Shown in pieces: positions 1 to 64,000 of a stretch of DNA of 64,000 nucleotides; positions within the stretch are counted from its first letter, which is position 1, and each line of letters opens with the position of its first letter. The notes under the pieces were generated by a model, which saw only the letters and a program-made list of their open reading frames with translations, ran no database searches and was not told the origin of the DNA. Both the position numbers and the translations under genes were made by a program. The stretch lies in assembly GCA_965203095.1 (NCBI GenBank), contig OZ241877.1, positions 448,001 through 512,000 on the forward strand. Reading direction: 5' to 3'. This DNA comes from Bdellovibrionales bacterium. GTDB taxonomy: Bacteria; Bdellovibrionota; Bdellovibrionia; Bdellovibrionales; UBA1609.

Positions 1-142
1 TTTTACCCATATCCTTTTTTGCGACACGGACTGAAAACACAATAGCCCTCTCCTTTTGGCTTTCTATCACTTCCACCTGATCCGGCTCACTCACAAGCCT
101 TTTTACAAGAGCGGTCACAGTTTTTTGCAGTTCCATAATATT

Positions 143-376
143 CTAACTCATCTTGGCAAAAAGGCTTTTAACTCTCCGACTGGGCTGAGCACCCTTTTTC
201 AACCAAAATTCATATTTCTCCTTGTCTATTACAGCTTTGTTCTCTTTTGAAAGAGGATCAAAATATCCTATTTGCTCAATAAACCGACCTTGAGGGGCTT
301 TTCGAGAATCGGCCACTGCCAGCCGGTATTTGGCTCTGTTTTTAGCACCAACTCTCACTAATCGAATAACCACCAT
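143..376 (-). CDS. rpsP: 30S ribosomal protein S16
   Basis: MVVIRLVRVGAKNRAKYRLAVADSR..GRFIEQIGYFDP S16 signature. Confidence 0.97.
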   Translation of the reverse strand: MVVIRLVRVGAKNRAKYRLAVADSRKAPQGRFIEQIGYFDPLSKENKAVIDKEKYEFWLKKGAQPSRRVKSLFAKMS

Positions 377-451
377 AATTCCCTCTCCTCTTTTTTTAAA
401 AGTTTATAATATTAAATAATAGGGCCTTGTCAATAAAAAAACATTATTCTT

Positions 452-1561
452 CTAAAGGGCTAAAGTCTCTTCAATTTGCAGGCCATAGCCTTTTAGGCCA
501 ATTTTTTTCCCCGATCTGTTGGTGATGAGCCGGATACGGCGGATTCCTAAAGCTCTTAAAATTTGTGCCCCAATGCCATAGTCCCTCTCATCAGACTTCA
601 ATGGCCAAGGGCGACTTTCAGGTTCTGTTTTGTTTTTATGACATTGAGCAAACTTAGACAGGCTATTTTGCATCCGCAGATAAATCAGCAGGCCCTTGCC
701 CTCTTTGTTGATCAAATCAACAGCCTTTTTGAGATACTGACCTGTGGGAAAAAGCTGATCTTGAAACAGATCCCCTGTTAAACAAGAGGTTTGAACACGA
801 ACCAGAACTGGTTCCTTAGGCTGAATATCCCCTTTAACACAGGCCAAATGCTCTCTTTCGTTTACAGAATCATAAAAAACAGACAGATTCCAGCCTTCCC
901 CCATACTTGTTTGAAAGGGGGCTTTTACTCGCTCTTCAACTAAAGAATCATGGGCCAAACGATATTTTATAAGGGATTCAATAGAACCGATTTTTAAGCC
1001 ATGTTTTTTGGCAAAAGCCCAAAGCTCAGGGATGCGGGCCATTGTGCCATCAGGATTGACAATCTCACAAATCACAGCAGAAGGATTCAATCCGGCCAGT
1101 TTGCAAAAATCCACACTGGCTTCCGTATGTCCTGCTCTTTTTAAAACCCCTCCTTTTTGAGCACGAATAGGAAAAATATGCCCCGGACGAATCACATCCT
1201 CTGGCCGGGCTCTCGGATTACAAAGTGTTTTTACAGTTTGGGCCCGATCGGCTGAGGAAATGCCTGTAGAAACCCCTTTCGCGGCCTCCACACTGACGGT
1301 AAAGGCCGTTCGATGAGGGGAGAAGTTATCCTCTTCCCTCACCATTAAACCTAAGGATAGCCTTTTGGCTTGCTCTGAGTTAATGGAAACACAAATAAGC
1401 CCTCTGGCCTCAACAGCCATAAAATTTATAGCGGAAGGGCTGATAAAATCAGAGGCGATCATCAGATCCCCTTCGTTTTCCCGATTCTCATCATCTACCA
1501 GTATGACAAAACGGCCCTTTTTCAGATCTTCTAAAATCTCTTCAACGGAATGAAATGGCAT
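452..1561 (-). CDS. ribB: DHBP synthase fused to a degenerate GTP cyclohydrolase II-like domain (RibBX-type)
   Basis: VDDENRENEGDL, TAFTVSV, GVSTGISSADR and RAGHTEA RibB motifs. The C-terminal RibA-like part lacks the CDC zinc ligands. Start taken at MPFHS (1561); the ORF extends to 1585. Confidence 0.92.
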   Translation of the reverse strand: MPFHSVEEILEDLKKGRFVILVDDENRENEGDLMIASDFISPSAINFMAVEARGLICVSINSEQAKRLSLGLMVREEDNFSPHRTAFTVSVEAAKGVSTGISSADRAQTVKTLCNPRARPEDVIRPGHIFPIRAQKGGVLKRAGHTEASVDFCKLAGLNPSAVICEIVNPDGTMARIPELWAFAKKHGLKIGSIESLIKYRLAHDSLVEERVKAPFQTSMGEGWNLSVFYDSVNEREHLACVKGDIQPKEPVLVRVQTSCLTGDLFQDQLFPTGQYLKKAVDLINKEGKGLLIYLRMQNSLSKFAQCHKNKTEPESRPWPLKSDERDYGIGAQILRALGIRRIRLITNRSGKKIGLKGYGLQIEETLAL

Positions 1562-1581
1562 TACCCTAAAAACCTTTGCTC

Positions 1582-2007
1582 TCACTCAGCATTTTTTTTG
1601 ATCTGCTGTATCTCCTCATCATCCTCAATTAAAATATCACTTTTAGAGCGAGACTCTTTTGGATTTTCTTTTCGTACCATTTTTAAAAAATGATGGGATA
1701 CGCGGTCCTGATGGGCCTTCACCTCCTGTTCAGAAAGATCAATCACCACATCACCAAAACAGTAAAGTTGGCAAGCCAAGCGTCTTTGATCGATATAATG
1801 CCCTTGCCCTATAAGCTTAAGCTCCTTAGCTGAAGGCAATATCAAATTGCTTTCCCCCTCTTTAATAAAAACCCGACAGTCCCCACAACTGCACATCCCA
1901 TTGCATGAGGATTGAATGTTCAAGCCTAACTCCCGGCTGATATCTAAAACTGTTTTTTCAGGATAAATATCTGCTGAAATATTTTGAGGCATAAATTTAA
2001 GTTTCAT
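1582..2007 (-). CDS. 2Fe-2S ferredoxin-type protein
   Basis: C-x5-C-x2-C (CNGMCSCGDC) plus RLACQ motif. Confidence 0.88.
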   Translation of the reverse strand: MKLKFMPQNISADIYPEKTVLDISRELGLNIQSSCNGMCSCGDCRVFIKEGESNLILPSAKELKLIGQGHYIDQRRLACQLYCFGDVVIDLSEQEVKAHQDRVSHHFLKMVRKENPKESRSKSDILIEDDEEIQQIKKNAE

Positions 2008-2197
2008 TATAAAGCCTTGTTTAAGTCAAATTATGTAAAAAATTTAAACCCCTAAGCTTTTTGTCAAAAAAAGAACAAGTCTTTCTTAAGCAAACAATTT
2101 AAAAAAGCCAAAAGCTCAAACAAAGGCAATATAAAGGATCCTGCCCAAGGATTCAAGTCCCTCATGAGCTTTTTTCCACTTTCTTTTCAAATAAACC

Positions 2198-2227
2198 CTG
2201 AGATTCCCGCTTTTGCAGGAGTCTCAG
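2198..2227. repeat. REP-like palindromic element
   Basis: CTGAGATTCCCGCTTTTGCAGGAGTCTCAG, an inverted member of the TCCCG-N-CGGGAATCCAG family, downstream of mfd. Confidence 0.55.
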
Positions 2228-2239
2228 GCCCCATCTATG

Positions 2240-5200
2240 TTAGCTGAGTTGGCACAATATTTTTTCCACATCTTCCATAAAGCCATTGCCACTTAAAGGG
2301 ATTTTGCAGTTTTGAGGGCTAAGCATTTGCCCTTTATAATCTTCTATTAGTTTTAAAATCTTTTCAGGAGATACTGAGGTTTTTTCATGCCAACTCAAAT
2401 AAAGATTTTCCCCAGCAATTTTAAAATCCCTTATAAGGAGTTTTTTGCAAAAATCCCTAATCTTTAAAAGGAAAAACAGATGGTTCAGCTCAATGGGAAT
2501 GGGGCCAAAGTCTTCCAGTAGATCCCTTTCAATATTTTGACGAGCGGGCTCCTCAGCTTCTGAGAGGCTCTTGTAATAAAGCAATCTTAAACGAGGGTCA
2601 GGAATATAATTTGAGGGGATATGGCTATCAAAGGGAAGAGAGATTTCCGGTTCTATAACAATCTTTTTTTGATCTCTTAACTGCTCATTTAAAATTTCAA
2701 AATAAAGCTCTTCCCCCAGGTTTTGCAGATGGCCACTCTGCTCAGATCCAAAAAGAGATCCGGCCCCGCGATTTTCTAAATCCTTTAGTGCTAACTGGAA
2801 AGAAAGCCCCAATCCGGCATATTTTTCCAAAAGGCTCAGTCGCTCTTTAGCCAAAACCGAAAGGCGATCTTTTGCCGGGAAAAGCAAGTAGCAGTAAGCC
2901 TCCTCCTGGCCTCGCCCCACACGGCCCTTAAGCTGATAGATCTGACTGAGGCCCATTTCATGAGCTCTGTCAATAAATAAAGTGTTGGCTTGGGGAAGAT
3001 CCATTCCTGATTCAATAATGTTTGTGGATACCAACATATCATATTTTTTCTCAAAAAAATCCAGCATGATTTTATCTAAACCCGGTGATTGCCCTTGAGC
3101 TGTCACTATCCGAAAATGAGGGAGCCGGCTTTGCAACTGCTCTAACCTCTGAAATAAAGTTTTTATCCGATTATGGACAAAAAGGATCTGGCCCCCACGA
3201 GCTTTTTCTTTTTTGCAAGCCCTGATTATATCATCCATAGAAGTCCAAGTCTTTAAAATGATCTGAACTGGTTTTCTTTTAGGAGGAGGCTCGGATATCA
3301 CACTGATATCTTTAATCCCTGTTAAAGCCATATTTAAAGTCCTCGGAATAGGAGTTGCAGAAAGGGATAAAACATCTAAATTTTTCCAAGATCGTAAAAG
3401 TCTCTCCTTTTGCCGGACTCCAAAGCGATGCTCTTCATCCACAACTAAAAGTCTTAAGTTTTTAAAAAACAATTTTGAGCTAAAAACAGAGTGAGTGGCT
3501 ATAAGAAGATCAACTCTCCCCGTTTTCACTTCCTGAAAAAGCTTTTCCCTTTGCTTTAAAGAGCTAAAGCGACTGAGCAAAGCCAACTCAAAAGGATAAT
3601 CTTTAAATCTCTGTTGGAAATTTTTAAAATGCTGTAATGCCAAAACCGTTGTAGGGGCTAAAAGGCAGACCTGAAAACCATTTTCCAAAGCTCTAAAAAT
3701 GGCTCTTAAAGCCACCTCTGTTTTTCCAAAACCAGTGTCTCCTGCAAGCAATCGATCCATAGGCTGGGGGCTATCCATATCCGCCATGATTTCCTGAATG
3801 GCACGGCTTTGATCCTTTGTCTCTTTCCAAAGGAATTTTTTGGCAAAACAGGCCAGAGCCTCTTGAACTTTGGCAAAAGGCGGGCGGGTTTTTTGTTTTC
3901 GCATTTTGTAAATTTCCATCAGTTCAATAGCTAAACTTTGAATATGTTTTTTGGCCTTACTCTTTTTTCTCTCCCAGGATTGTGGCCGGCCCAACTGATC
4001 GAGCAAAGTTTTAGAAATAGCTGATCCTCTTTTTCGTGCATAACATTTTACCTGAGAGGCCCTGTAGGCGGGAACAAATAGTTGATCCCCAGCTTTGTAT
4101 TTGAGAACAATAAAATCCTCAAATTGGCCTTGCAGGGGAAGACTTTTTAAACCCACAAACTCCCCTACCCCATACTGAATATGGACTAAAAGATCCCCTT
4201 CCTCTAACTGAGAAAACTCTATAGCTCTCGCTTTTTGCCGGAAAAAGTCAAAATGGCGGGATGAGTGATCTTTTTTTGGTAAAAGGCTTAAGGCTTGCAA
4301 ATAAGCTGTCTCTCCTGGACAAAAAAAGCTTTCTCTCAAATGGCCTTTAAGGAAAATCAAATTTTTCCCACAAAAAAAATCTTCATCTTCTGGATTTAAA
4401 ATCTGCTCTTTTAACAATAGTTTTTTCAATTCATCCTGAGACTCTCCCACAAACACAATATGACGAGCGGGAAGATTTAAAAGATCTTCCCTCAAACATT
4501 CGGTCTTTTTAAACAGAGAAGAGGAAAAGCTTTTCAAAAAAGAGGGCTTTTGCCTTTCAGATGAATCTTTTTTTAGGGAAAAAGCCCTTAAATTTATCAC
4601 CTGATTTTGTTGGGCGGAAAAGCGACTATCCTTTTGATACTGGACTATTTTTTTCTCAAAATAGTTAAAGTCCAAAAAAATATTTTCTGTATGGATAGGA
4701 GATTGTTCCTTCTCCCAAAGGATCCGCTCTTCCATAAACTGAGCTTTAGCCTTTTCTGGCTCAAAAAACCATAATTGAGGCGGATCTAAAAAACAGTCCA
4801 AGGAGCAGGTTTTATCCCAATAGTTGAGAAAAACCTCAAAGCCTTCGGGCCTATTCCCTCTGGCTACAGATTTAAAAAAACCATAAGGTAAAGCCGGCTC
4901 TAATCCTTTAAAATGCTGGCAAAGCTTTTTTCTGTCCTCAACTGTCCAGCTCCATTCATAAAGAGGGGGGATGAGGGCCTTTTCCATCTCTATTTGTCTT
5001 TTTTTAAAAAGCTTATCCAACAGATGGATGGACTGCACTTTTGAGCCAACAAGCTCTATCCTTAAAGGCGTTTTATAAGCGGGAGAGTATATGTCCATCA
5101 AAAAGCCTCTGATAGAAAAATCACCGGGCCTCTCCACAAAGGCCCTTTCCCTATAAGTAATTAGAGCTGACATATCAAAACTCTGATCTTTTTTGATGAC

Positions 5201-45314: not shown

Positions 45315-45389
45315 TGGGGTGTCGGCAAGTGGTAAGCCAACAGATTTTGGTTCTGTCATGCGCAGGTTCGAATCCTGCCACCCCATCCA
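45315..45389 (+). tRNA. tRNA-Gln (TTG)
   Basis: Acceptor TGGGGTG/CACCCCA, anticodon arm ACAGA-TTTTGGT-TCTGT, GGTTCGAATCC T-arm, encoded CCA. Confidence 0.97.
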
Positions 45390-45921
45390 TTATAAAAATC
45401 ACTCTTGTTTTAAATTCCATAAGCAGGATAGTCCCCTTATTTTCCCGACTTCAGCACGACACGACATGTTAAAATATTAAAAAATATTGTGACAACTTGT
45501 CAACTACTCTAAAAGCAGGGCTAAGAAGAACTCAGCTGACAGACTTAGACTGATTGAGCGTCTGATGAAGAAAGTTAAAAACAACATCGTATGCCTTCTA
45601 AATCCACAGAAGAGATAAGAACTATATACGAGGCTTTTGGCCTTAAAAGAGTGTCTCAATTTATCCCCACATCTTACATTAAATCTTAGAATGTGTGGCA
45701 CCAAAAACCTGCAAATCCCTATAAATACTCATTTGTTGCATTGCATTATGCGGAAGTCAAGAAAAGGACATTTCTCAAGATAAATTATTCAATCTGGTTG
45801 AAGTGTCATTACAATACAATTACAAAAATTGAAACAAATGGTATATCTAATTTTACTATTGAAACTATGAAAAAATGTTACTTCTTTAGCAGTCGCTATG
45901 ATAATTTAATGGAATAAAACT

Positions 45922-48651
45922 ATGTTAAGGCAAGAACAAAAAAATATCTGGCAAAATCTTTTTGAAAAAAAAGAAAAAGCAAATTTGTCAGAATACCTAA
46001 AAGTTTATCAAAAAAGAATACAACAAGAAAGTGAGAAACTTTTTGTCTCAGAGTTTTTATATCCTATATTTGGAAAATATAACATTAAATATGTTATACC
46101 TCAATATCCTTTCATTGATTCAGAGGGTAGAAGCAGAAGAATAGATTTTGCAATCATAAAAGACGGTAAGAAGTTAGCTTTTGAAGTCAATGGTGAATTT
46201 TACCATGCAGAAGGGATTATCCCTAATGAAATGTTTGATGATAATTTGTCTCGTCAAAATGAGATTTTAAATGCTGGTTATCAGTTGCTTCGTTTTTCAT
46301 ATAATCAACTTCAATCGCCTGCTTGGAGAAAACGAGTTTTTGAAAATATTAGAAGATCAGTATACAAAAAATTTCCTGAGTTAATTTCTGAAACTATTAT
46401 TGAACCAAATTATCTTCAAAAAGAAGTATTAAAAAATCTTGATCTATATAGATCTAAAGGCTGGAAAAAAGGTATTGTTGTTTTACCTACTGGAACCGGA
46501 AAGACTTACTTATCCGCGTTTGACACTTTAAAAACAAATGGAAAAATTTTATTCATTGTTCACCGTCTGGATATTCTCAATCAGTCAAAGGTTGCATTTG
46601 AAAAAATATATCCGAAAGAAAAGTTAGGTTTGTTGACAGGACATGTCCAAGAAAATTTAAAAAAATCCAAGGTATTATTTGTCTCTAAGGATTCACTAAA
46701 AAATGCTGTTCATTTAAATATTTTTAAAAAAGATGAGTTTTCATATATTATTGTTGATGAAGTGCATCATGGTCAAGCTCCTTCATATAAATTGATACTG
46801 GATTATTTTGATCCTTCTTTTTTCATGTTAGGCTTAACAGCTACACCTGACAGAATGGATCGAAAGGATATTTTTGAAATATTTGATTATAATAAGGTTT
46901 TTGAATACTCACTGATTGAAGCTATAGAAAGTGGGTTCTTAGTGCCGTTCAATTATTATGGTTTAAAAGATAATATCAATTATTCAAATATTCGCTATAA
47001 AGGAGAAAAATATAATGTCCGAGACTTGGATCGCCATTTAATTATAGAAAAAAGGAATCAGCAGATATTTGAAGAATATTTGGAAAAGGGAAAAGGAAAT
47101 AAGGCTATAGGGTTTTGTTGCTCAATCAAACATGCTGAAAGAATGGCTGAATTTTTCAATCTTCAAGACATTCCTTCTGTAGCAATCACATCTTTAACAG
47201 ATCAGCGAACTGATCTAATTGATAAATTCAAAAAAAATGAAGTAGCAGTCGCTTTTACAGTGGATATTTTTAACGAAGGAATGGATTTTCCAAATGTGCA
47301 AGTTTTAATGTTTCTGAGACCTACAGAATCTAAAACAATTTTTATGCAACAACTTGGCAGAGGATTACGTCTCTGTGGTGGAAAATCCAATATTGTAGTT
47401 TTAGATTTCATCAGCAACTATAAAAAAGCCAATAAGATAAGAAAATATATTTCAAAAAACTTAAAAGCAGTTAGAAACCCTAAAAATAAAAGAATTGAAA
47501 AAATCGAATACAAGTATTCTCCAAAATGCAATGTTTATTTTGATAGTGAAGTGGAACAGATTTTTGATGCACAAGATAGACAGGAAAGAGAAATAACAAA
47601 AGAAGATTTGATCGGAGCATACTATGATTTATCGGAATCCTTGCAAAGAAAACCAACACAAGAAGATATAAATCAACATGGAGAATTTAAAATTTCAAAA
47701 TATCTTTCAGTATTTAAGTCATGGGTGAAATTTCTTAGAGAGATTGGCGAGTTTACTGAAGCGAGTTATCATTTTCCACAAGGACTTCACTTAGGGCATT
47801 TGCTATATATTATAAAAGTGGTAAATTCCAGTCGATTTAAGAAGAGTCATCTCAATCAGAAATTTGTAAAATTAAGAGGAAATTTTGATCCCGGAAGGCT
47901 TGGGACTTTTCAAAGACAAACTAAATATAAATTACAAGGTTTAATGGAACTGGGGCTATTGATTGATGATAGAACTTTAGAAAAAGACGAAAAACTTGAA
48001 TTGAAACTAACTCCACAAGGGCTTATTTTCTATAGACTCTTAAAATCTGTTATAGAAACTCTTAATTTGTCTTTTAAAAAGAAACAACAGAATATCCCTT
48101 CATGGGACATGAATATCCCTGCAACTGATTTCAATTTGTCTATTAGGAGTTTCCTCTTAAAACATAAGAATAAAAAAGATAAAATCAGGGCTATATTTCT
48201 GGAAATGCATGCAATTAGACTCATGCTCAATTATCTTTACAGAGTGGAGAGAAAACAGATTATATCTAAGATTGATATTTATAAAGGTTTTTTTAATTCT
48301 CAGGAGGTCGCAAGGTATTGTGATCAGAATGGTATTGAAATTGCTACAGAGGAAGGGGCCAAACATCGTTGTCCTTTTTTGCTCAATGTGTTAGAAGCAA
48401 TAGGAATACTGGAAAATAGAAAAAATGAAGTGGAGTTGAAAACATTTTTAGTTTCACCAAAACTATTGATTTCTCAACATAGGGAACCGGACACATTATT
48501 AAAAATGCGTTTTGAAGCAATCAAAAAGTATTATTTGAAAACTGTAATTGACCTTCCAGCAAATGAACTATCCATATTAAAGGAGCTGTTTGGTAAAGAT
48601 TTTCTCACATCAAACTATTTTTTAAATAAGATGGAGTTTAACAATGCCTAA
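45922..48651 (+). CDS. Nuclease (Vsr/DUF559-like PD-(D/E)xK) - SF2 DExH helicase fusion
   Basis: RIDFAI..AFEVNGEFYH..RQNEILNAGYQLLRF; LPTGTGKT, DEVHH, GLTATPDRMD, FNEGMDFP, QQLGRGLR. Confidence 0.88.
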   Translation: MLRQEQKNIWQNLFEKKEKANLSEYLKVYQKRIQQESEKLFVSEFLYPIFGKYNIKYVIPQYPFIDSEGRSRRIDFAIIKDGKKLAFEVNGEFYHAEGIIPNEMFDDNLSRQNEILNAGYQLLRFSYNQLQSPAWRKRVFENIRRSVYKKFPELISETIIEPNYLQKEVLKNLDLYRSKGWKKGIVVLPTGTGKTYLSAFDTLKTNGKILFIVHRLDILNQSKVAFEKIYPKEKLGLLTGHVQENLKKSKVLFVSKDSLKNAVHLNIFKKDEFSYIIVDEVHHGQAPSYKLILDYFDPSFFMLGLTATPDRMDRKDIFEIFDYNKVFEYSLIEAIESGFLVPFNYYGLKDNINYSNIRYKGEKYNVRDLDRHLIIEKRNQQIFEEYLEKGKGNKAIGFCCSIKHAERMAEFFNLQDIPSVAITSLTDQRTDLIDKFKKNEVAVAFTVDIFNEGMDFPNVQVLMFLRPTESKTIFMQQLGRGLRLCGGKSNIVVLDFISNYKKANKIRKYISKNLKAVRNPKNKRIEKIEYKYSPKCNVYFDSEVEQIFDAQDRQEREITKEDLIGAYYDLSESLQRKPTQEDINQHGEFKISKYLSVFKSWVKFLREIGEFTEASYHFPQGLHLGHLLYIIKVVNSSRFKKSHLNQKFVKLRGNFDPGRLGTFQRQTKYKLQGLMELGLLIDDRTLEKDEKLELKLTPQGLIFYRLLKSVIETLNLSFKKKQQNIPSWDMNIPATDFNLSIRSFLLKHKNKKDKIRAIFLEMHAIRLMLNYLYRVERKQIISKIDIYKGFFNSQEVARYCDQNGIEIATEEGAKHRCPFLLNVLEAIGILENRKNEVELKTFLVSPKLLISQHREPDTLLKMRFEAIKKYYLKTVIDLPANELSILKELFGKDFLTSNYFLNKMEFNNA

Positions 48652-49597
48652 TAAATCACATCATAACTCAGGACACCGAGCAATGAATCTTATCAATAAA
48701 TGCGGTAAAAAGCACAGCTCTTTTGTGAAAAGTGAGTTGCCAAAAAAAACCAGACATATACTATATGTTGAAGACGCTGTAAGTTTTCTGAAGAAGATTC
48801 CGGATTCATCAGTTCAGTTGATACTTATTGATCCTCCATATAATCTTGAATTGGATGTATGGGATAAATTTGATAATTATCTGGAATGGGCTAAACAATG
48901 GCTGGATGAAATTTACAGGATTTTAAATACTTCAGGAAACTGTGTTATTTTTGGAGGCTTTCAATATCAGGATTTGAAAAAAGGTGATCTTTTGGAAATT
49001 TTGCATTACACAAGACATAATACAAAATTGCGATTTATAAATTTAATTGTTTGGTATTATAAAAACGGAATGTCTGCTCATCGGTTTTTTGCCAATAGAT
49101 ATGAAGAAATAATTTGGCTTTCAAAAACAAAACAGTATTATTTTGATCTTGATTCTGTCAGAGTTCCTTATAATTTTGAATCAAAACAAATAGCTTTAAG
49201 AGACAAAAGATTAAATCCTGATAATATTGAAAAGGGGAAAAATCCTACTAATGTGTGGGAAATACCCAGGTTGAATGGAAATTCAAAAGAAAGAGTAGGG
49301 CATCCAACACAGAAACCCTTGGAAGTGGTTAGAAGATTTGTAAAATCGCTTTCCTATCCTAATTCTTTGGTTTTAGATTTTTTTTCTGGTTCTGGAACAA
49401 CTGGTAGAGTGTGTATTGAGGAAGGAAGAAATAGCATTCTTGTTGATAATGATCTAAATTCAATAGAATACTTGAATAAACATATAAGGAAAGTTGGCAG
49501 AATGGGATTACCCTGTGATTTTGAAATACTGGACAATATACCTGTAAAAGATTTTATTGATAAACTGAAGCAGGAATTTGATGATGGTCATAAATAA
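48644..49597 (+). CDS. Beta-class adenine DNA methyltransferase, M.RsrI-like
   Basis: DPPY precedes DFFSGSGTT. SHHNSGHRAMN, NGMSAHRFFANR, DKRLNP..KGKNPTNVW..RLNGNS.ERVGHPTQKP match M.RsrI as I recall it. Confidence 0.9.
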   Translation: MPNKSHHNSGHRAMNLINKCGKKHSSFVKSELPKKTRHILYVEDAVSFLKKIPDSSVQLILIDPPYNLELDVWDKFDNYLEWAKQWLDEIYRILNTSGNCVIFGGFQYQDLKKGDLLEILHYTRHNTKLRFINLIVWYYKNGMSAHRFFANRYEEIIWLSKTKQYYFDLDSVRVPYNFESKQIALRDKRLNPDNIEKGKNPTNVWEIPRLNGNSKERVGHPTQKPLEVVRRFVKSLSYPNSLVLDFFSGSGTTGRVCIEEGRNSILVDNDLNSIEYLNKHIRKVGRMGLPCDFEILDNIPVKDFIDKLKQEFDDGHK

Positions 49598-49610
49598 ACA
49601 AGGTAATAGA

Positions 49611-50152
49611 ATGAACGTTAAAAAAGAAAATTATTTAAAAGTTGGAAGTGATCCAAAGTATAGAAAATTAACTTGGGATGAAGAAAATACAAAATTTATA
49701 ACTGGTCCAAAAGAAGAAAAAGATCTCACCATTTCAGAATTAAGAAAAGAAATAGAGCCTTGGCTTACCGCTTTATTTCAAAGTGAGCGGTTAAACCTTT
49801 TGGTAGGGAGTGGACTCACCACTTCTCAGGAAATTCTTGCAACTGGAAAATCTACAAAATTCATGGAGTGTATGGATTTTGATGTGTTTTCTAATCAAAT
49901 AAAAAAAGCAGGAGTGAAGAAGGCCGAACAAGAGGGAAGGAAAGAGCTTAATATAGAAGATCAAATAAATATAGCAAATACTCTTTTAGAAGGATTAAAT
50001 ATTTATGTAGAAGATAATGGCACAGAAGCATTAAAAGGAGATATTGAGAAATTAAAAGAAAATATAAATAAAAATTTAGAGAACTTTATAAAAAAAACTC
50101 TCTATGTGGAAAAAACAATTATAAACAAAAAAAATAAGACAATACAATATCT
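49611..50152 (+). pseudogene. 5' fragment of a SIR2-like defence protein
   Basis: IEPWLTALFQSERLNLLVGSGLT start typical of HerA-associated SIR2 proteins; lacks TTNYD and KLHGS motifs. Confidence 0.65.
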
Positions 50153-50449
50153 AATACCTTTTTACTTCATAGGATCACAAATGACAGGGATCAGGAGATG
50201 GTATCTCGTTTATTACCGGATAGTTTAAAAGGCACGATGCAGGAATTACCAGCTCTACCTTCTCGTCATGCTTATTTATTGGGATGGGCTTCAGAAATTC
50301 CCATTTTAACAAAAATATCTTATTTGCCGGAAAAAGCCAGACCTCAATCAGATGATCCCGATTTCTGGAAGGTATGGACAAGAGAAAAAGAAAGAACAAT
50401 TAATTGGAAAGCTATAGCAGATAAATGGCAGGGCAAAGACAAAGACTAA
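50153..50449 (+). pseudogene. 3' fragment of a HerA-like ATPase
   Basis: The frame of ORF 50198 reads upstream as NTFLLHRITNDRDQEMV, then ELPALPSRHAYLLGWA..PQSDDPDFW; no Walker motifs remain. Confidence 0.7.
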
Positions 50450-50577
50450 TCAATCTACTGAAAACGGAATTTTACCTTTCTGATATTCTTATAAATATTT
50501 CATTCAGTTAAATTAACTTTTGAGTTGCCTATTAGTCAGTCTTATATTTTTTATAAGAAATTATTTTAAATGAAACT

Positions 50578-50651
50578 TATACTGATTACATTTGAGATTT
50601 CCGGTCAAAACAGAGTAGAGAAAGCAGGAATTTTCAAACAAAATCAGTATA
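50578..50651. mobile_element. MITE-like element with TATACTGATT..AATCAGTATA terminal inverted repeats, copy 1
   Basis: 74 bp; second copy at 55861-55932 shares the TTGAGATTTCCGGTCAAAACAG core. Confidence 0.7.
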
Positions 50652-50669: not shown

Positions 50670-51563
50670 TTAAATTTTTAAAGGGATAAGATCTTTAAGA
50701 GAGGAAGGGGGTTTTTTGTTCCAAAGGCTGATGATATGCCCTCCTAAACCCGAACCTGTAGGTTTTACAGCTAAAGCTCCACATGTTTTTAAATGATTCA
50801 TCCGCCTCTCTAAGTCATAAGAGATCAGTTCCCAATCACGAAAGCACTTTTCCCCTAAGCTGAGAGCTGAGGATAAAAGCTGAAGGGATTTTTCACTTTT
50901 CTTTTCCTTCAAGGCCGAAAGTGAAAGCTGGACCGATTGTGCCATATTTCTGTCAATTTGTTTGGCCTTTTGAGGGTTTTTATTAAAAATATTTTGAACT
51001 TGAAGCACACTCACAGAAGTAGAAGCCCTTCCTCCAGAATGAGACAAAAACAAATAGGGTTTTGATTGGAAGGAGGGAAGAGGCTTGAGTTTTTTACCCT
51101 TTTGATAGAGAAGGGGCCTTTGCTCTAAAACCGCTGTCACATCCATACCACTGCTTTTTCCATGGAAAAAATCTTCTAAGAAGATAGCAAAAGGCTTGAG
51201 ATGAAGTTTGGTAATCCATTTTTTATGCAAAAATAAACTGGCAATACCTGCACTTAAAACTGCCGAAGCCCCTAAGCCCGCACCAAAGGGAATAAAGCCC
51301 TCAATAGTTAAACAGCCTTTTAGATCCTGTCTTTTTTTACCGGCTTTTTTTAAAGCTCTATCTAAAAGAGGGCTGAAAGAGAACTCCAGCCCCGCAGGAT
51401 ATTTCCCTCCTTTTTTTACTTTCAAAACCGCATTGGACTCTGTCCAACAAAAGTCTATATAATATCGAGACAAAGGGTAGACTATAGCCGGAAAGCCCCT
51501 TAAAACACTGTGCTCTCCGGACAAAACCCACTTGCCAAAAAATCTTTTTTTAAACCGGCTCAT
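50670..51563 (-). CDS. GHMP kinase, probable mevalonate kinase
   Basis: GKWVLSGEHSV, PFGAGLGASA, HGKSSGMD, KPTGSGLGG. Confidence 0.88.
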   Translation of the reverse strand: MSRFKKRFFGKWVLSGEHSVLRGFPAIVYPLSRYYIDFCWTESNAVLKVKKGGKYPAGLEFSFSPLLDRALKKAGKKRQDLKGCLTIEGFIPFGAGLGASAVLSAGIASLFLHKKWITKLHLKPFAIFLEDFFHGKSSGMDVTAVLEQRPLLYQKGKKLKPLPSFQSKPYLFLSHSGGRASTSVSVLQVQNIFNKNPQKAKQIDRNMAQSVQLSLSALKEKKSEKSLQLLSSALSLGEKCFRDWELISYDLERRMNHLKTCGALAVKPTGSGLGGHIISLWNKKPPSSLKDLIPLKI

Positions 51564-51675
51564 CTCATACCGATCCTTTAGAAATGTAATGGTTTTAACT
51601 CAAAAACAGATTTCTTTATATCTTAACATATTTTTAAACATATTCTCAAAATATTTTTCCCAATAGTCCCTTGTG

Positions 51676-51782
51676 AAAAAATCTACATTTAATGGATCAC
51701 ACAAGCAAAAGTCCAGCTTGTTCGCGGGAAAAATACCTTGGACCCTCACCGCTGGCTTTTGCTTGTGCGATAAAGGGCAGAG
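51676..51782. repeat. ~108-bp long-stem hairpin repeat, copy B
   Basis: Near-identical to 24375-24482. Confidence 0.85.
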
Positions 51783-51860
51783 CTTTTTCATGGAGGGCTT
51801 GTAAGCAGATGTTTCAGGAAAAACAGAGATCCCTGGATTCTTGTTTTCACAGCCAGCGAA

Positions 51861-52925
51861 TCAGTGAGAGGACAAAACAGTAAAGTCAGATAAAAGAGTT
51901 TTTATTTTCTCCCTCTGATCCCTTTGATCCGGACGATACAGGAGGTGAATATTGGCTCCAGCATCCATTGTCACTAAAGGCCCATCATGTTTCCAAAAAG
52001 TTTGAATACAGCTCAAAACCTTTTTTACTACCGAGGTCTGATATTTAAAAGGAGGACGAGAGCTTTCAAACAAAAGATGAATATCCAAAAATTCCTCATT
52101 ACAGATTTTAAAGCAAGCTCTCCAATCCCTCTGTTCAAAAGCTCTCATCAAAAATTGCATTCGCTTTTTGGCCCTTATTGGTCGATCCTTAAAGTGAGGA
52201 CTTGTCCGGACCCTCTCATGAGCTTTTGTAGAGCTTATCTTTTTTGGACGAGGATCTATTACAACGAGTTGGTGGAGTAATTTCCCCCAAGGAGCCGTAA
52301 AAGCTCGCACTCCCGAATCCTCCCAAAGGCAAAAAGGGGCAAAAAAAGATCGGCAAGAAGAACCTGAACCTACACGACTGAGCTGAGCCAACTTTTCCCA
52401 AGTCATTTTATTGATTAAAGATTTTATGGGGGAACGATTTTTAGCCAATTTGTAGACGGCCTGGGTGAGGGCACAAAAACTACTGGCCGAACTGGCTGTC
52501 CCTATAGATATAGGGAAGTTGCTTTGCGAAAAAACTGTATAGTGCCCAGGGAGAGAAAAAACCTTTTTCAAAAACCGGAAAAAATCCAAAAACCTTTTTT
52601 GTGCTGAGGGGGGAAGGCTGTTTTCAAAAAAAAACTTTTGAGATGTGCTATAACTGAGCTGTTTAAAAGGATTGCTTTTAAAAGCCGACCATTGATCTTT
52701 CTCTGACTCTTCAATAAGGACTTTAGTTTTAAAGTGTTCTAAAGTGTAAGATAAAGAAGGGTTTACACTTATGTTTTTAAAATAAAGATCCCCCTTTTCC
52801 TCTTCTGACAAGTTTTGGAGAAAACAAGGGTCGAAATGGACAGGAGGGATAAGGCTTTGGCCTTGAGCTTTGCCCATATACTTGATGAGAGCAATATTAG
52901 AAGGGGCCCCAGCCGACCAACTCAA
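51861..52925 (-). CDS. mvaD: Diphosphomevalonate decarboxylase
   Basis: APSNIALIKYMGK, GTASSASSF, SRVGSGSSCRS, TMDAGANIH. Confidence 0.93.
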   Translation of the reverse strand: MSWSAGAPSNIALIKYMGKAQGQSLIPPVHFDPCFLQNLSEEEKGDLYFKNISVNPSLSYTLEHFKTKVLIEESEKDQWSAFKSNPFKQLSYSTSQKFFFENSLPPSAQKRFLDFFRFLKKVFSLPGHYTVFSQSNFPISIGTASSASSFCALTQAVYKLAKNRSPIKSLINKMTWEKLAQLSRVGSGSSCRSFFAPFCLWEDSGVRAFTAPWGKLLHQLVVIDPRPKKISSTKAHERVRTSPHFKDRPIRAKKRMQFLMRAFEQRDWRACFKICNEEFLDIHLLFESSRPPFKYQTSVVKKVLSCIQTFWKHDGPLVTMDAGANIHLLYRPDQRDQREKIKTLLSDFTVLSSH

Positions 52926-53830
52926 TGAGAGACCTCCTCAGGTTTTGTCAATTTATGAAAAGTGACACCATAAGTGAGTTGGCTACTATCAGCCACAAGT
53001 TTTAAAAAAGATGTTTCCCTTCGGACTTCTTCTTCATCTTGTTTTTTATAAAAAACAATCAGAGTCTCTGCCCCCATAGCCCCACAGGCCTTACAGGCTT
53101 GAATGGCTTTTATATTTGTGAGTTTGTTTAAAATTTCCTGACTTTTAGTTGTGATATAATTTTTGTTAAGTAAGCCTTTTCTATAGTTATTGACGGCTGA
53201 GATAAACGCCAGCTCATCCCTTTTTTTCATGGCTTGAACCCCCTCTTGAGAGATTTTTTTAAGGTCGGAGACATCACTCAGTTTAAAATTTTTTAAATAT
53301 TTGTGGGTTTCAAAATACTCTCCTGTTCTTAAAATCAAACAATGAAGCTCTGGAAGAGATGAGGTTAATGTCTCTACAGAGAGCAAAGGATCCTGTTCAA
53401 AAATACTCACCCCTCCCACCCACTGTGTGATGACATCCGCACCACTGGGTAAAAAACCGTCAAATTTTAACTGCCGATAGCTCCTCCATATATCCTGAGG
53501 TTTAATCTGATCAATACTCCCCTCTCTTAAAATAAAACTGTAAGCATATAAAATATTAAACTGTGCTGAGGAAAATCCTAAACCTCCCACAGGGCGATCC
53601 CCATTCAGCCAATTTAATTGGACTGTTTGGAAGTCTCGAGGGTTTTTCCTAATCCATTGGCCGGCAGGGCTATTTTCACTTAAATCGAGTGAGCGAGCTT
53701 GAGAGACTTTTTGGATCCGGCAAATAAAACGAGGGGCTGTGTTCAAAACAATGGCTGGCCCGCCGTCTAAAACAGCATATTCCCCTATGACAAAGGTTTT
53801 GGCAGGGCAACTGATTTCAATCACATTCAC
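52922..53830 (-). CDS. GHMP kinase, probable phosphomevalonate kinase
   Basis: PAKTFVIGEYAVL, GLGFSSA, PSGADV, KACGAMG. GTG start at 53830 assumed; the ORF extends to 53932. Confidence 0.8.
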   Translation of the reverse strand: MNVIEISCPAKTFVIGEYAVLDGGPAIVLNTAPRFICRIQKVSQARSLDLSENSPAGQWIRKNPRDFQTVQLNWLNGDRPVGGLGFSSAQFNILYAYSFILREGSIDQIKPQDIWRSYRQLKFDGFLPSGADVITQWVGGVSIFEQDPLLSVETLTSSLPELHCLILRTGEYFETHKYLKNFKLSDVSDLKKISQEGVQAMKKRDELAFISAVNNYRKGLLNKNYITTKSQEILNKLTNIKAIQACKACGAMGAETLIVFYKKQDEEEVRRETSFLKLVADSSQLTYGVTFHKLTKPEEVSH

Positions 53831-54144
53831 TGTTGACAAAATCCTTTCAGGTCGTTTCACTATCCCGACCCTCCTGAAAAAAGTCAGTTGGGCCGGCCGT
53901 TTTTTCATACTCCTCAAAACTTTTATTGTCAAGAACAGAATGTTATGTCCCTATTTTTCCCTTGTTTTTGTGCAACAGCCATGTTAAAATGGCCTTCATA
54001 ATGAAAAGAAAAAGCTCAAAATCCGGCAAAAATCTTTTAAAAGAAGAGCTATTTGTAATTCAAGCCACAGGTGACAATGCAAGACTCATCAACTCCACCC
54101 CATTTAAAGCTAAAGCCTTTTCTTAAAAACGACGGTAAAAGGGT

Positions 54145-57920: not shown

Positions 57921-57932
57921 GAGCGGAAAAAT

Positions 57933-58496
57933 ATGAAAATCATTGTGGGTTTGGGGAATCCGGATCCAAAGCACAGTCTTACAAGACATAATTTGGGCTT
58001 TGTTCTCATAGACGCTATAGTGGGGGGAAATAGTTTTGAGAAAAAACACAAAAGCCTTATTCGAAAAACAAAAATAGGAGAAACTGCCGTCCTCTTAGTC
58101 AAACCTCAAACCTTTATGAATTTGTCCGGCCAGGCCATAAAAGAGATTATCCATTTTTACAAAAGACCTTTAGAAGATCTGTTGGTCATTCATGACGATA
58201 AAGATCAAATTTTTGGGCAGATGAAATTTCAAAAAGGCCGTGGGCATGGCGGGCACAATGGAGTAAAAAACATACATCAGGAGTTAGGTTCTTCAAATTA
58301 CTGCCGGTTAAAGATAGGGATAGCCCGGACCGAACCGATCCGGCAAAGCACATCTCAGTTTGTCCTCTCCCCCTTTCAACCTGATGAGAAAAAACAACTC
58401 CCCACACTTTTACAAAAGGGAGTAGAGGCTGTTCGCTCTTTTGTGATTCATGGCTTATCATTCTCAGCTAATCAGTTCAATTCCAAAAAGCTATGA
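57933..58496 (+). CDS. pth: Peptidyl-tRNA hydrolase
   Basis: IVGLGNP, TRHNLGF, KPQTFMNLSG, GGHNG. Confidence 0.97.
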   Translation: MKIIVGLGNPDPKHSLTRHNLGFVLIDAIVGGNSFEKKHKSLIRKTKIGETAVLLVKPQTFMNLSGQAIKEIIHFYKRPLEDLLVIHDDKDQIFGQMKFQKGRGHGGHNGVKNIHQELGSSNYCRLKIGIARTEPIRQSTSQFVLSPFQPDEKKQLPTLLQKGVEAVRSFVIHGLSFSANQFNSKKL

Positions 58497-59632: not shown

Positions 59633-59737
59633 AAAACCTTGTTAAAAAATAGTTTTCCACAAGATGGACTCTGAAAAAACAGAAAGTGAAAATGCTTGGC
59701 GAAAGGCTTTTTCACGAGGGGCTATTTAATGTTTAAA

Positions 59738-60670: not shown

Positions 60671-60975
60671 TTCCGCTCATTTTTTTGATCCTGCTTGTAG
60701 CCACAAAAAAAATAGCTAACCACAGCAAAAGGCACAAGAGGGCTGAGGCTCACTATAGCGATCAGGCCCTGAGCCACATCACTCATGTTAAGGATAATGT
60801 AAGGGAGGCTTAAAGCCAATAGGGAGTATATCAATCCCCCCACTATGCAAAGCCATGTAATGGAATTGGCTTTAAGAGGAACCTTACACCCTCGACAACT
60901 CCAGCGGGCCCAACTATATTTTATAAGCCATAGCTTTAAGGATATAGGGGGTTGACGGCAAGAAGGGCATTTCAT
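60667..60975 (-). CDS. Hypothetical Zn-finger membrane protein
   Basis: CPSC..CRGC followed by two TM segments; GGAG RBS; overlaps the tilS start. Confidence 0.7.
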   Translation of the reverse strand: MKCPSCRQPPISLKLWLIKYSWARWSCRGCKVPLKANSITWLCIVGGLIYSLLALSLPYIILNMSDVAQGLIAIVSLSPLVPFAVVSYFFCGYKQDQKNERK

Positions 60976-61133
60976 AAAAAACTCCTTTTTTACTTTTTAA
61001 TGTGGATAGTATTTTTTGTCAATGGAGACTGCAACTGGCCTAAAAACCAAAGGGAAAGGGCAGGACTTTATCCCTAAATCCTGCTTTTATAAAATAAACT
61101 TGATTTTTCCTTATTGTTTTTGTTAAAATAAGC

Positions 61134-61215
61134 TGAGGTTGGCTTTAGTCCTGCTCCAATAAATCTCTTTGACATCTCGATTGTCAAAAAGGGAGGGCAT
61201 TAAGCCTAACTCTGC
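61134..61215 (+). other. Long imperfect hairpin, candidate structured 5' leader or sRNA
   Basis: GAGGTTGGCTT..TTTGACA-TCTCGAT-TGTCAAA..AAGCCTAACTC directly after TTGATT-18-TAAAAT. Confidence 0.45.
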
Positions 61216-61241
61216 CAAAGTTTTTAAACAAGAAGGCCATT

Positions 61242-62210
61242 ATGTCTAAAAATTTTTCTACTGTCCTGCTCTTTTTTCTGGCTTTTGTGGCGATAGCCCT
61301 TGGTGGCTATCAATGTTCCACAAGGGTTTCCGATGGCAGTTCGCAAGTTTATCTTCCCATCGGCCATCAAGGGCCTCACAATTCTTATTCCCCTTCGGCT
61401 CCCTCTACTAAAAGTCCCTCTTCTTCCTCTTCAGACACTAAAGATTCTTTACCAAAGGAGCCCGATCAGGATTCAGCCTGCCCTCTTATAGAAAATAGTG
61501 GGAGTCATGGGACTATCGCTAATTTCCGGTTCAATCCTCCCAGTCTTGAGGATTTTCTCTTAGGTCGCAGATCAAATTTTGATATAAGATGCTCTCGGAT
61601 GATCCTTTCCATGAGCCAGCTTAACCCCTCTGCCGACAAACCCATATACAAAGGTCGGCTAATTTTAGCTTTTTATGGTGGTGGGGCGGGCTATTCAGGA
61701 CATCAGTTCCTATCTGGAACTACGGATAAAGAAAACAAAAACAACCATTGGGAAATCAAAGGCACTTGGAATACCAGTAAAAGAAAACCTGATATTTCTG
61801 GCAAAAAATTTTACTCTATTTTTGACAACGAAAAGGGAGCTATTATTTTAAAGTTAGAAGATGTTCGCACCAGGGAAGTCAAAGATGGGGAATTGGCCTA
61901 CTTGGCCGCGGGGGACATTTACTACAAAATGTTCCGGATATGGACAGGTGACAATGCCGACACTTGTTATAACAAAGGTATTTATGTCAGCCAAGCACAT
62001 AGTGCTCCATCTAAAGACGGAAGGTGCTGGTTAATAGGCTCTGGGCCTTTCAGTTGCTTGCCTACAGGCCCTCTTCCTCCTTCGGGAGGGCGATCGCCAC
62101 AGGCACCAGACATAGATATTAAAGGTTCCTTACCCTGTTATAGTCGCCTGGGTGAATTTTATAATTTGAATATAGAGAAGGCTTTTAACAGCTCTGTTGA
62201 TGACTTGTAA
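61242..62210 (+). CDS. Hypothetical exported or lipoprotein
   Basis: Hydrophobic N-terminus ending GYQC, Ser/Pro linker, 322 aa. Confidence 0.75.
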   Translation: MSKNFSTVLLFFLAFVAIALGGYQCSTRVSDGSSQVYLPIGHQGPHNSYSPSAPSTKSPSSSSSDTKDSLPKEPDQDSACPLIENSGSHGTIANFRFNPPSLEDFLLGRRSNFDIRCSRMILSMSQLNPSADKPIYKGRLILAFYGGGAGYSGHQFLSGTTDKENKNNHWEIKGTWNTSKRKPDISGKKFYSIFDNEKGAIILKLEDVRTREVKDGELAYLAAGDIYYKMFRIWTGDNADTCYNKGIYVSQAHSAPSKDGRCWLIGSGPFSCLPTGPLPPSGGRSPQAPDIDIKGSLPCYSRLGEFYNLNIEKAFNSSVDDL

Positions 62211-62259
62211 ATCAATTTAACTGCTTTTTCATTATTAGCGAAAAGGCTAAGGAGGTTTT

Positions 62260-62844
62260 ATGTTTGATGTTTTAAAAAAAATTTTTGTTTTGTTGTCATT
62301 TTTTTTGCTTATTTCTTGTGACAGTAAATCAGGAGAAAGCACTACTGCCACTGGAGGGGTGGCGACCCCTCAACAACAACTTATTTTTTCAAAAACTTGC
62401 CCAGCTGGTTCTGTAAATGTCCATCATACTCCAAGCACTTTAACTACTGCGGGAACTGTAACTTTAGGTCAACTTCCTGTAGGGGCTAAAGTCAGCATTT
62501 CCGGAACCATTACTTCGGGAGGTTGTGGTCAAACCGGCCCTCTCACTTTCACCTGTTCCGCTGTTGTTCAGATCACTAACAATCGAGCTTATGTTTGTGA
62601 GAGTGGAACTATAAGCTCCTCTATTTTAACAGCGAGTGCTCAAACTGTTACGGCAGGGCAATCACCTGTGGCACCAGGGATTGTGCCTCAGCCCCGATCT
62701 TTTGTTGGAGGCTACTTTATGGTTTTTAATAACGGCACCAGCTTATTTGGCCGTATTGAATTGGGGCCTTCACAATGGATTCAAACAAACTGCCCGATAA
62801 GTTTTAATTGTGGTGTTGGTCAAGCTCCTTCTCTTGCTTTTTAA
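62260..62844 (+). CDS. Hypothetical lipoprotein, Thr/Gly/Cys-rich
   Basis: AGGAGG RBS, lipobox LISC. Confidence 0.78.
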   Translation: MFDVLKKIFVLLSFFLLISCDSKSGESTTATGGVATPQQQLIFSKTCPAGSVNVHHTPSTLTTAGTVTLGQLPVGAKVSISGTITSGGCGQTGPLTFTCSAVVQITNNRAYVCESGTISSSILTASAQTVTAGQSPVAPGIVPQPRSFVGGYFMVFNNGTSLFGRIELGPSQWIQTNCPISFNCGVGQAPSLAF

Positions 62845-62912
62845 TTAAATAGGATTTTTTTAAATGGATCTCTGGATATTTTTTTCCCATTTTTAAAAAG
62901 TGGATTAAAAAG

Positions 62913-63773
62913 ATGCTTTTATATGAGGAGGATTTTTTAAGAGATCTGTTTCACCGTGGCTATTCTGAAAACACAGTCTCTGCTTACAAAAGGGACTTGG
63001 CCCGGTGGGAAGACTTTTGCCAATCTCGCCGGCCTGTTCAAGAATTTTATCGTTTTTTAACTAAAGAAAAACTGAGCTTAAGTTCTCAAGCCCGGGTGAT
63101 CAGTTGCGTCCGGAGCTATCTGAAGTTTTTGCAAAAGCGAGGGCAGACAGTAAAAGAGCTGAAATTTATGAGCCTTCCCCCTCTTAATCGCAAACTCCCT
63201 AAGCCTATCCGTTGGCAAGAATTTAAATCCTTATGGCGGGCTTGTGAGGGGAAAACAACAAGTCAATCAATTAGAAACCAACTGATTTTATCTTTTTTAT
63301 ATGGTTTGGGTTGCCGTGTGAGTGAGTTGGTGTCGCTCAATCTTCAGGACTTTAATGAGACAGAAGCTTGGATCAGCCTTATGGGCAAGGGGGGCCGTGA
63401 GAGGCTTTTGCCCTTGACAGGTCATCTCTATAAATTGCTCCTACTTTATTTGAAGGAATCTCGCCCTCACTTAGGGAAAGTGAGCCATCCCTCTTTATTT
63501 TTTAACAATAAGGGCCGGCGCCCCTCCAGAGTGGATATATGGCGTTGGTTAAAAGCATGGTCTTTAAAGGCGGGTTTTGAGGATGTGAAAAACCCTCACT
63601 CCTTCCGCCATGGTTGTGCCACAGGACTTTTAGAAAAAGGAGCTGACCTCAGAGCCATTCAAAAACTTTTAGGCCATTTGAGCATTCAAACCACACAAAT
63701 TTACACTTCTGTCAGTTCAAAAAAACTGAAAGAGGTTGTGGATGAGTTTCACCCTCTTTCACAAGCAAAATGA
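62913..63773 (+). CDS. xerD: Tyrosine recombinase XerD/XerC family
   Basis: SENTVSAYKRDL, GCRVSEL, GKGGRER, PHSFRHGCATGLL..GADLRAIQKLLGH..TTQIYT. Confidence 0.85.
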   Translation: MLLYEEDFLRDLFHRGYSENTVSAYKRDLARWEDFCQSRRPVQEFYRFLTKEKLSLSSQARVISCVRSYLKFLQKRGQTVKELKFMSLPPLNRKLPKPIRWQEFKSLWRACEGKTTSQSIRNQLILSFLYGLGCRVSELVSLNLQDFNETEAWISLMGKGGRERLLPLTGHLYKLLLLYLKESRPHLGKVSHPSLFFNNKGRRPSRVDIWRWLKAWSLKAGFEDVKNPHSFRHGCATGLLEKGADLRAIQKLLGHLSIQTTQIYTSVSSKKLKEVVDEFHPLSQAK

Positions 63774-63928
63774 TTTTTTTTAAAAAAGCCCTTCAAACTT
63801 TTTTATATTGATTCATGACACTTTAGGCTATGCCTGATATTAGCTAAAGTGTTGAAATGAATAGGAAAAATGTTTGAAAAACAAGCTCTAAAAGTGTCAT
63901 GAACTTTTAAATTTTTAGGCAAAATGAA

Positions 63929-64000
63929 TTAAGCTCTAAAACTCTCTATTTTCCCCTCTAATCTATATCTATATTCCAGCATTCAAGACACAAACAAGCT
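63929..64000 (+). repeat. Diverged copy of the pentapeptide-array spacer (runs off the window)
   Basis: TTAAGCTCTAAAACTCTCTATTTTCCCCTCTAATCTATATCTATAT..AAACAAGCT aligns with 27865-27936. Confidence 0.7.

Follow-up and report, generated by a model that had tools for sequence, protein, structure and literature searches.

Does the complete absence of GAATTC from a 64,000-nucleotide stretch of a Bdellovibrionales chromosome reveal what the restriction-modification (R-M) genes within it recognize? The stretch (contig OZ241877.1, positions 448,001 to 512,000; hereafter the window) contains a low-GC island with two overlapping genes, one for a 909-residue protein that joins a nuclease domain to a superfamily 2 (SF2) helicase and one for a 317-residue methyltransferase resembling M.RsrI; we refer to this pair as the cassette. 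The preliminary description of the window proposed that the lineage had long been under GAATTC-directed restriction and that the missing site independently supported GAATTC as the target of the pair. Site avoidance itself is an already known phenomenon, and the interest lies in the gene pair. The reading that we favor, with reasonable confidence, joins two statements: GAATTC has been lost through ordinary turnover of R-M systems, and the cassette is a two-gene, ATP-dependent R-M system directed at GAATTC.

The site is wholly absent from the window, as had been claimed from reading by eye, and the plus strand holds 74 GAATT and 60 AATTC pentamers. Base composition (39.5% GC) predicts 20.9 sites, in agreement with an earlier estimate of about 20, and a maximal-order Markov model predicts 10.5, for which the probability of finding none is about 3e-5. 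The genome to which the window belongs (G000; 1,797,770 bases in two contigs) is depleted throughout, holding 37 sites where 350 are expected (ratio 0.106, z −16.7). At this rate, a 64-kb window should hold 1.3 sites and would hold none with a probability of 0.26; 7 of the 27 nonoverlapping 64-kb windows of G000 are in fact GAATTC-free. The window is therefore typical of its genome, and these site-free windows rule out a local link between the missing site and the island.

The depletion concerns the exact word and is achieved by synonymous codon choice. Where 90 in-frame GAA-TTC codon pairs are expected, 8 occur, which bears out the suggestion that core genes also shun the site. The 37 surviving sites are scattered, with 28 inside crude open reading frame (ORF) calls, in all three frames, and nine between genes. 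The broader ApoI-type motif RAATTY was ruled out as the avoided motif, with GAATTT/AAATTC at 1.17 and AAATTT at 0.90 of expectation in G000.

This enzyme-rich bacterium avoids about a dozen restriction sites, GAATTC among them. Absent from the window are 21 of the 64 palindromic hexamers, including CAATTG (10.3 expected), CATATG (10.0), and CTGCAG (4.5), and GAGCTC occurs once against 25.6 expected. Across G000, the ratios of observed to expected counts are 0.02 for GCWGC, 0.03–0.04 for CTAG, 0.03–0.06 for GCGC, 0.06 for CATATG (a single site in the chromosome) and for GAGCTC, 0.11 for GTAC, 0.13 for GTWAC, 0.16 for ACGT, 0.17 for CCCGAG, 0.20 for CTGCAG, and 0.21 for AGGCCT. There is no blanket loss of palindromes: among the 62 palindromic hexamers with an expectation of at least 1, 40 reach a ratio of at least 0.75, so the low GAATTC value is not one that most of them share. 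This 1.8-Mb genome carries about 40 DNA methyltransferase genes; there are 21 matches to PF01555 (20 over the cut-off), five to PF00145, and about 15 further genes of the Eco57I, N6_Mtase, D12, MmeI, and MT-A70 families (64 of 155 neighborhood ORFs scanned).

One gene of this load, in locus L275, encodes a CcrM-like methyltransferase that scores 562 bits against the NCBIfam CcrM model, below the cut-off; no nuclease was seen beside it, and GANTC is barely depleted in G000 (0.94). The second contig of the assembly, C2 (1-17191), consists of a 1109-base unit repeated in tandem about 15.5 times, with copies that are 98–100% alike and unmatched in the chromosome. The contig includes CATATG, GTAC, and CTAG, all of which the chromosome avoids, and may be foreign DNA or the product of sequencing repeatedly around a small circle.

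Every genome of the genera g1 and g42 (G000–G009 and G196–G277) avoids its own set of restriction-type words, with CATATG, GAGCTC, and ACGT low in most of the methylase-rich members, and these genomes form a good set for matching avoided words to enzymes. No one-to-one match between avoided words and resident enzymes was reached. The SacI family gave no match in the five genomes searched (a search that had no positive control), and the MunI family was found only in G240 among the genomes searched. The PstI/BsuBI family is full-length in G007, though CTGCAG there is undepleted (0.99), and is reduced to fragments of 73 and 67 residues (L361, L362) in G221 and G240. These fragments, like a 3′ part of the cassette methylase gene in G240, are remnants of lost R-M systems and sit in genomes depleted for the matching words.

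A search of 251 genomes of the order located the cassette itself in four, namely G000, G002, G221 (identical to G041), and G245. The G240 remnant covers methylase residues 138–310 only (L326:9579-10223, 89% identity), with no helicase, in a genome whose GAATTC ratio is 0.11. Depletion was compared among 25 genomes of g1 and g42 by whole-genome counts, with expectations taken from sampled DNA; for the relatives, samples of 6–100 kb were scaled to rounded genome sizes, and the expectations for G052, G054, G056, G003, G001, G020, and G060 are unreliable. Two repeat-like contigs of G229 were dropped from the hexamer contrast and divergence analyses and from the ranking of the 25 genomes. Kinship was taken from a quick RpoB tree of 26 rows that lacks G001.

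The expectation that relatives with and without the cassette would differ was borne out in part. The five carriers, one of them the remnant, rank 1, 2, 3, 4, and 11 for GAATTC depletion, with a median ratio of 0.11 versus 0.54 in the others (nominal p 0.0005, a value overstated by kinship), and within g42 the carriers rank 1, 2, and 3 of 15. Three sister contrasts run in the expected direction, namely G221 and G240 (0.10 and 0.11) versus G276 (0.72–0.78), G245 (0.15) versus G277 (0.35), and G000 (0.10) versus G007 (0.23); G002 is uninformative. What did not stand is a clean separation: congeners in which no cassette was detected are also depleted (0.22–0.73), four of them, G005, G007, G211, and G217, to 0.22–0.26, and CTGCAG behaves like GAATTC. 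The EcoRI nuclease family (PF02963) was not found in G005, G007, G009, G211, G217, G277, G240, or G245, nor was the M.EcoRI family (PF13651) in these same genomes or in G041; a weak PF02963 match (E 5.4e-9) did turn up in G006, which is little depleted (0.73).

Much of this pattern follows general avoidance. GAATTC depletion tracks a general avoidance index across the 25 genomes (Spearman 0.77), and the carriers rank 1, 2, 4, 10, and 12 on that index. With the index as a covariate, the carrier effect on GAATTC is −0.38 ± 0.20 log units, smaller than that on CTGCAG. With at least nine other words at 0.02–0.2 in G000, and almost nothing left of its GAATTC depletion once general avoidance is accounted for, depletion fails to point to the resident system in particular, contrary to the idea that it independently supports that system's specificity. 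Depletion here is avoidance of the known type and only weak evidence for that specificity.

Among adequately sampled genomes that carry an EcoRI system, GAATTC ratios extend from 0.04 to about 1. A clean single-word case is G058 (locus L030), a 1.5-Mb member of the Bacilli with an RsrI-like methylase and an EcoRI-family nuclease, in which GAATTC occurs 18 times against about 440 expected and other palindromes are near normal (0.94).

The case for the specificity of the cassette is better made from its genes. The methylase aligns with M.RsrI (PDB 1eg2) over residues 1–282 (E 1.9e-105, with the next family at E 3e-37), which upholds its earlier identification as a close M.RsrI relative, and its PADLOC match is to MTase_II (E 1.9e-108) rather than MTase_III (E 2.3e-14). 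M.RsrI methylates the inner adenine of GAATTC, according to the accessible text of PMC7544214, and homology and gene neighborhood make it very probable that the enzyme considered here writes G(m6A)ATTC. In 80 metagenome loci collected with the C-terminal domain of the 909-residue protein as query, an RsrI-like methylase (46–78% identity) lies directly downstream of the helicase in 75; the remaining five end within 148 bases, so that all 75 informative loci have it. So constant a link with a single methylase clade is what a nuclease in need of a cognate methylase would show, and we consider the 909-residue protein the likely cognate nuclease.

Seen from the methylase, the partner changes. Species genomes supplied the 21 nearest methylase loci (56–91% identity), seven with the helicase (one an edge fragment), 12 with an EcoRI-family nuclease (10 adjacent, one truncated; two one gene further), and two with neither partner, both near contig ends. 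Helicase-partner and EcoRI-partner types interleave in a tree of 55 methylases, and the methylases of L018 (helicase partner) and L019 (EcoRI partner) are 95% identical. This apparent exchange of partners with EcoRI-family nucleases is the strongest argument that the cassette would be specific for GAATTC, ahead of depletion. A second GAATTC system in G000 was ruled out, as neither PF02963 nor PF13651 was found there in a search for which G047 served as the positive control. Avoidance inside the cassette genes, assessed in 59 dereplicated helicase genes, 54 methylase genes, and their flanks, is suggestive only as a test of specificity: the helicase genes hold 27 GAATTC sites against 75.7 expected (rank 4 of 1980 hexamer pairs, with GTCGAC and CTCGAG below it), and the word lies outside the lowest 14 palindromes in the methylase genes and ranks 14 of 64 in the flanks.

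The 909-residue protein has no similarity to R.EcoRI and has 296 homologues spread over bacteria and archaea. Its motor comprises ResIII (160–311) and Helicase_C (382–484) domains followed by an HNH_repeat (558–609), and the N-terminal domain resembles DUF559/MTES_1575 nucleases, models that homologues match at their N termini. In 73 aligned homologues, Asp75, Glu88, and His95 of the nuclease domain are invariant, and the motor motifs are kept (Walker A Lys194/Thr195, Asp279/Glu280, DEVHH, and QQLGRGLR). The C-terminal region of about 300 residues (~615–909) has no Pfam match and is a putative target-recognition domain. Its nearest named neighbors by language-model features are the recognition domains of FokI, AlwI, and BpuJI (0.87–0.89, a lead only), and comparison with PDB sequences gave nothing convincing (best E 0.012, a helix-turn-helix regulator). 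The same domain is found behind a PLD nuclease (P0127, P0135, P0144–P0146, and P0200–P0210) and before an HNH nuclease (P0176, P0183, P0187, and P0197), as expected for a portable recognition module; both forms are without a motor and are candidate stand-alone restriction enzymes. The domain had no match in the plasmids searched and occurs at three loci in viral contigs.

We propose that this lineage of small Bdellovibrionales genomes repeatedly gains and loses R-M systems. New unmethylated sites would occasionally be cut by the cell's own nuclease, and synonymous changes that remove them would be favored; selection against sites through self-cutting follows from what is established about restriction. 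The ratio of 0.10 for GAATTC in G000 would then combine a lineage-wide background (0.2–0.7 without the cassette) with a probable, though unproven, extra effect of the resident cassette. In the cassette, the M.RsrI-like enzyme is predicted, from homology and partner exchange, to methylate the inner adenine of GAATTC, and the C-terminal domain of the 909-residue protein would bind the unmethylated site. The protein has the domains to move along DNA by ATP hydrolysis and may cut with its N-terminal nuclease, at a predicted position. It occupies the place that R.EcoRI or R.RsrI holds beside the same methylase in other genomes.

The cassette has a history of its own. Its gene context differs among G000, G002, G221, and G245, and the helicases of G000 and G245 are 92% identical with a fourfold-site divergence of 0.26, against 66% identity and a divergence of 0.60 for RpoB of the same two genomes. 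Because the rpoB divergence between G000 and its sister G007 is 0.59, the cassette crossed between genera after those two split, and the depletion in G007 (0.23) consequently needs an earlier or separate exposure. The pair that moved is most likely an ATP-dependent GAATTC R-M system, to judge from its gene context.

Several observations weigh against a GAATTC-directed cassette that adds to the avoidance of its host. Carrier G002, at 0.41, is no lower than its congeners, and carriers in other phyla stand at 0.46, 0.53, 0.75, and 0.98. The carriers rank 1, 2, 3, 5, and 14 of 24 for CTGCAG, with a carrier effect of −0.68 ± 0.24, and 2, 3, 5, 10, and 11 for CAATTG. The GAATTC residual of G000 from general avoidance alone is 0.01; with CTGCAG equally extreme, the figures fall short of establishing that the cassette adds to the depletion. 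One GAATTC each is present in the helicase genes of G221 and G002. In 3 of the 80 metagenome loci (L172, L180, and L190), the cassette is followed, two genes further downstream, by a full EcoRI nuclease-methylase pair, a redundant arrangement if both systems cut GAATTC; this stacked cluster is partial in L192, L194, L014, and L015, of which L192 and L194 retain the EcoRI methylase only. Finally, according to the accessible text of Rusinov et al. (2015; PMC4687349), hosts show no avoidance of the sites of Types I and III, which are ATP-dependent.

It is unlikely that the GAATTC loss stems mainly from the resident cassette and would by itself read out the specificity. The four most depleted of the 25 genomes are carriers or remnant carriers, the three sister contrasts agree, GAATTC takes rank 2 among 1951 hexamer pairs in the carrier/noncarrier contrast on sampled DNA, and in pooled cassette loci it is the lowest of 24 palindromes (102 versus 241). 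That rank, however, drops to 12 when the noncarriers are methylase-rich, CTGCAG separates carriers equally well or better, and kin are not independent, leaving four contrasts at best; the strong depletion of G005, G007, G211, and G217, where EcoRI-type genes were searched for and none found, and the movement of the cassette after the G000/G007 split point the same way. An explanation with no restriction selection at all, in which mutation or repair bias or a codon-pair preference removes GAATTC, is very improbable. It could draw on two mildly low one-mismatch neighbors (GAACTC/GAGTTC at 0.65 and GATTTC/GAAATC at 0.75) and on some palindrome under-use in all sampled genomes (the other 63 pooled at 0.58–1.09, mostly 0.8–0.95). 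However, the strongly avoided words are restriction-type palindromes in sets that differ from genome to genome (GCGC is at 0.03 in G000 and 1.01 in G221, CTAG at 0.03 in G000 and 1.05 in G240), the residual GAATTC sites respect neither frame nor gene boundary, and the word is abundant in most family members outside the two genera.

A further alternative makes the 909-residue protein a SauUSI-like Type IV nuclease or another noncognate effector, with the methylase as an antidote or second layer and the avoidance left by lost EcoRI-like systems. The best PDB match of its motor region is to 7clg, a 953-residue protein that we take to be SauUSI (E 1.3e-64, residues 159–605), its best PADLOC model is mREase_IV, and complete EcoRI systems stand beside the cassette in the three stacked clusters. 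However, the match is confined to the motor region, a Pfam search detected no PLD or SRA domain in the protein, the feature neighbors of its C-terminal domain, as a lead only, are the recognition domains of FokI, AlwI, and BpuJI, and the linkage to one methylase clade suits a nuclease dependent on a cognate methylase. We consider this alternative quite improbable and retain R-M turnover together with a GAATTC-specific cassette as the preferred reading.

The avoidance in G000 resembles the cases of Rusinov et al. (PMC4687349), whose accessible text describes hosts that avoid the sites of orthodox Type II systems, with traces of systems since lost among the cases, but reports such avoidance only where nuclease and methylase act independently and mostly none for Types I, IIC/G, IIM, III, and IV. 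As in those cases, the palindrome is under-represented genome-wide and in relatives that lack the system, and the avoided sites outnumber what resident systems explain; unlike in them, the putative nuclease belongs to an ATP-dependent helicase fusion, encoded independently of the methylase and yet supplied with a motor. The cassette shares with RsrI and EcoRI, as far as these are covered in the available portions of PMC7544214 and PMC4081073, an M.RsrI-like methylase of which near-identical forms adjoin EcoRI-family nucleases, but the place of that nuclease is taken in G000 by the 909-residue protein. Like SauUSI, in the accessible account of PMC12707154, this protein joins nuclease, SF2 motor, and recognition domain in a single chain; SauUSI, however, combines PLD and SRA domains, cuts methylcytosine DNA, and has no cognate methyltransferase, whereas here a DUF559/MTES_1575-like nuclease is joined to a C-terminal domain that Pfam does not relate to that of SauUSI, and every informative locus has a methylase next to it. 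CglI and NgoAVII likewise combine restriction that depends on ATP with a separate methyltransferase of Type II-like character, and the available part of PMC4267653 gives them three genes (methylase, R protein, and helicase) and the asymmetric site GCCGC; in contrast, the cassette has two genes with nuclease, motor, and recognition fused, a β-class methylase predicted to form m6A, and a palindromic site as proposed. Type III systems differ in their long Mod subunit, which is needed by Res, and in their asymmetric site, whereas this methylase has 317 residues and MTase_II as its best model. MANTIS (10.64898/2026.09.23.753747), a four-gene hemimethylating system in its accessible description, was ruled out as the identity of the pair, and no published description of the pair was found in the literature searched, which left most subscription journals and REBASE outside its reach.

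It is tempting, though we hold the idea only tentatively and somewhat doubt it in full, to see in these comparisons an undescribed R-M class, in which a single-chain protein of nuclease, SF2 motor, and recognition domain would have repeatedly displaced R.EcoRI or R.RsrI beside the same GAATTC methylase, would share its recognition module with PLD and HNH nucleases, and would be self-toxic enough to drive site avoidance in its host. If so, the cassette drives host avoidance, which is unusual for ATP-dependent systems, and these Bdellovibrionales genera are a natural experiment, their depleted words a readable record of R-M systems gained and lost from a shared pool. If the 909-residue protein is indeed GAATTC-specific, blocked by methylation, and driven by ATP, the best-studied restriction site has a second, unrelated cutter, widespread in bacteria and archaea and currently labeled Type IV by defense-system libraries. 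A caution also follows: where a genome holds dozens of R-M systems, the depletion of a word can be traced to a resident enzyme only if general avoidance is controlled.

Table. Features of the window and of related loci. Locations without a locus or genome label are window positions.
Feature	Location	Strand	Basis or remark
Window	1..64000	.	0 GAATTC, CAATTG, CATATG, CTGCAG; CTAG 5, GCGC 3, GTAC 2, ACGT 2, GCWGC 1, GAGCTC 1
tRNA-Gln(TTG)	45315..45389	+	left border of low-GC island
Low-GC island	45390..50640 (limits approximate)	.	31% GC vs ~40% in flanks
909-aa nuclease-SF2 helicase	45922..48651	+	Pfam matches, homologue alignment
317-aa β-class N6-adenine methyltransferase, M.RsrI-like	48644..49597	+	PDB 1eg2 match; start overlaps helicase stop by 8 nt
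SIR2-like defense gene, N-terminal fragment	49578..50228	+	PADLOC SIR2, profile 11–159 of 430
HerA-like gene, C-terminal 83 codons	50198..50449	+	PADLOC HerA, profile 607–685 of 686
Three adjacent genes right of island	50670-53932	−	first has a GHMP kinase match
Stacked cluster	L172:933-7616, L180:87-6735, L190:2102-8843		nuclease-helicase, RsrI-like methylase, ~400-aa β-class methylase, EcoRI-family nuclease, M.EcoRI-family methylase
CcrM-like methyltransferase	L275:9347-10414 (G000:C1 ~1,113.8-1,114.9 kb)		NCBIfam CcrM
SIR2-like gene adjoining Piwi-domain (Argonaute) gene	L256:3926-7095 (G000:C1 ~137.4-140.6 kb)		
SIR2-like gene adjoining Piwi-domain (Argonaute) gene	L339:9616-12610 (G245)		

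The island is already free of CTAG, GTAC, GCGC, GCWGC, and GAATTC, an absence of host-avoided words that fits long residence within this genome group. Downstream of the methylase, the SIR2 fragment running into the HerA end (49578–50449) is probably the deletion scar of a SIR2-HerA defense pair, and the SIR2-like fragment was not found in the other cassette loci compared, which places it outside the conserved pair. By look, we take the three genes to the right of the island to encode mevalonate-pathway kinases and a decarboxylase, the names of the second and third being tentative. SIR2-like genes also occur next to genes for Piwi-domain (Argonaute) proteins in G000 and G245, and in G245 the two lie directly downstream of the cassette.

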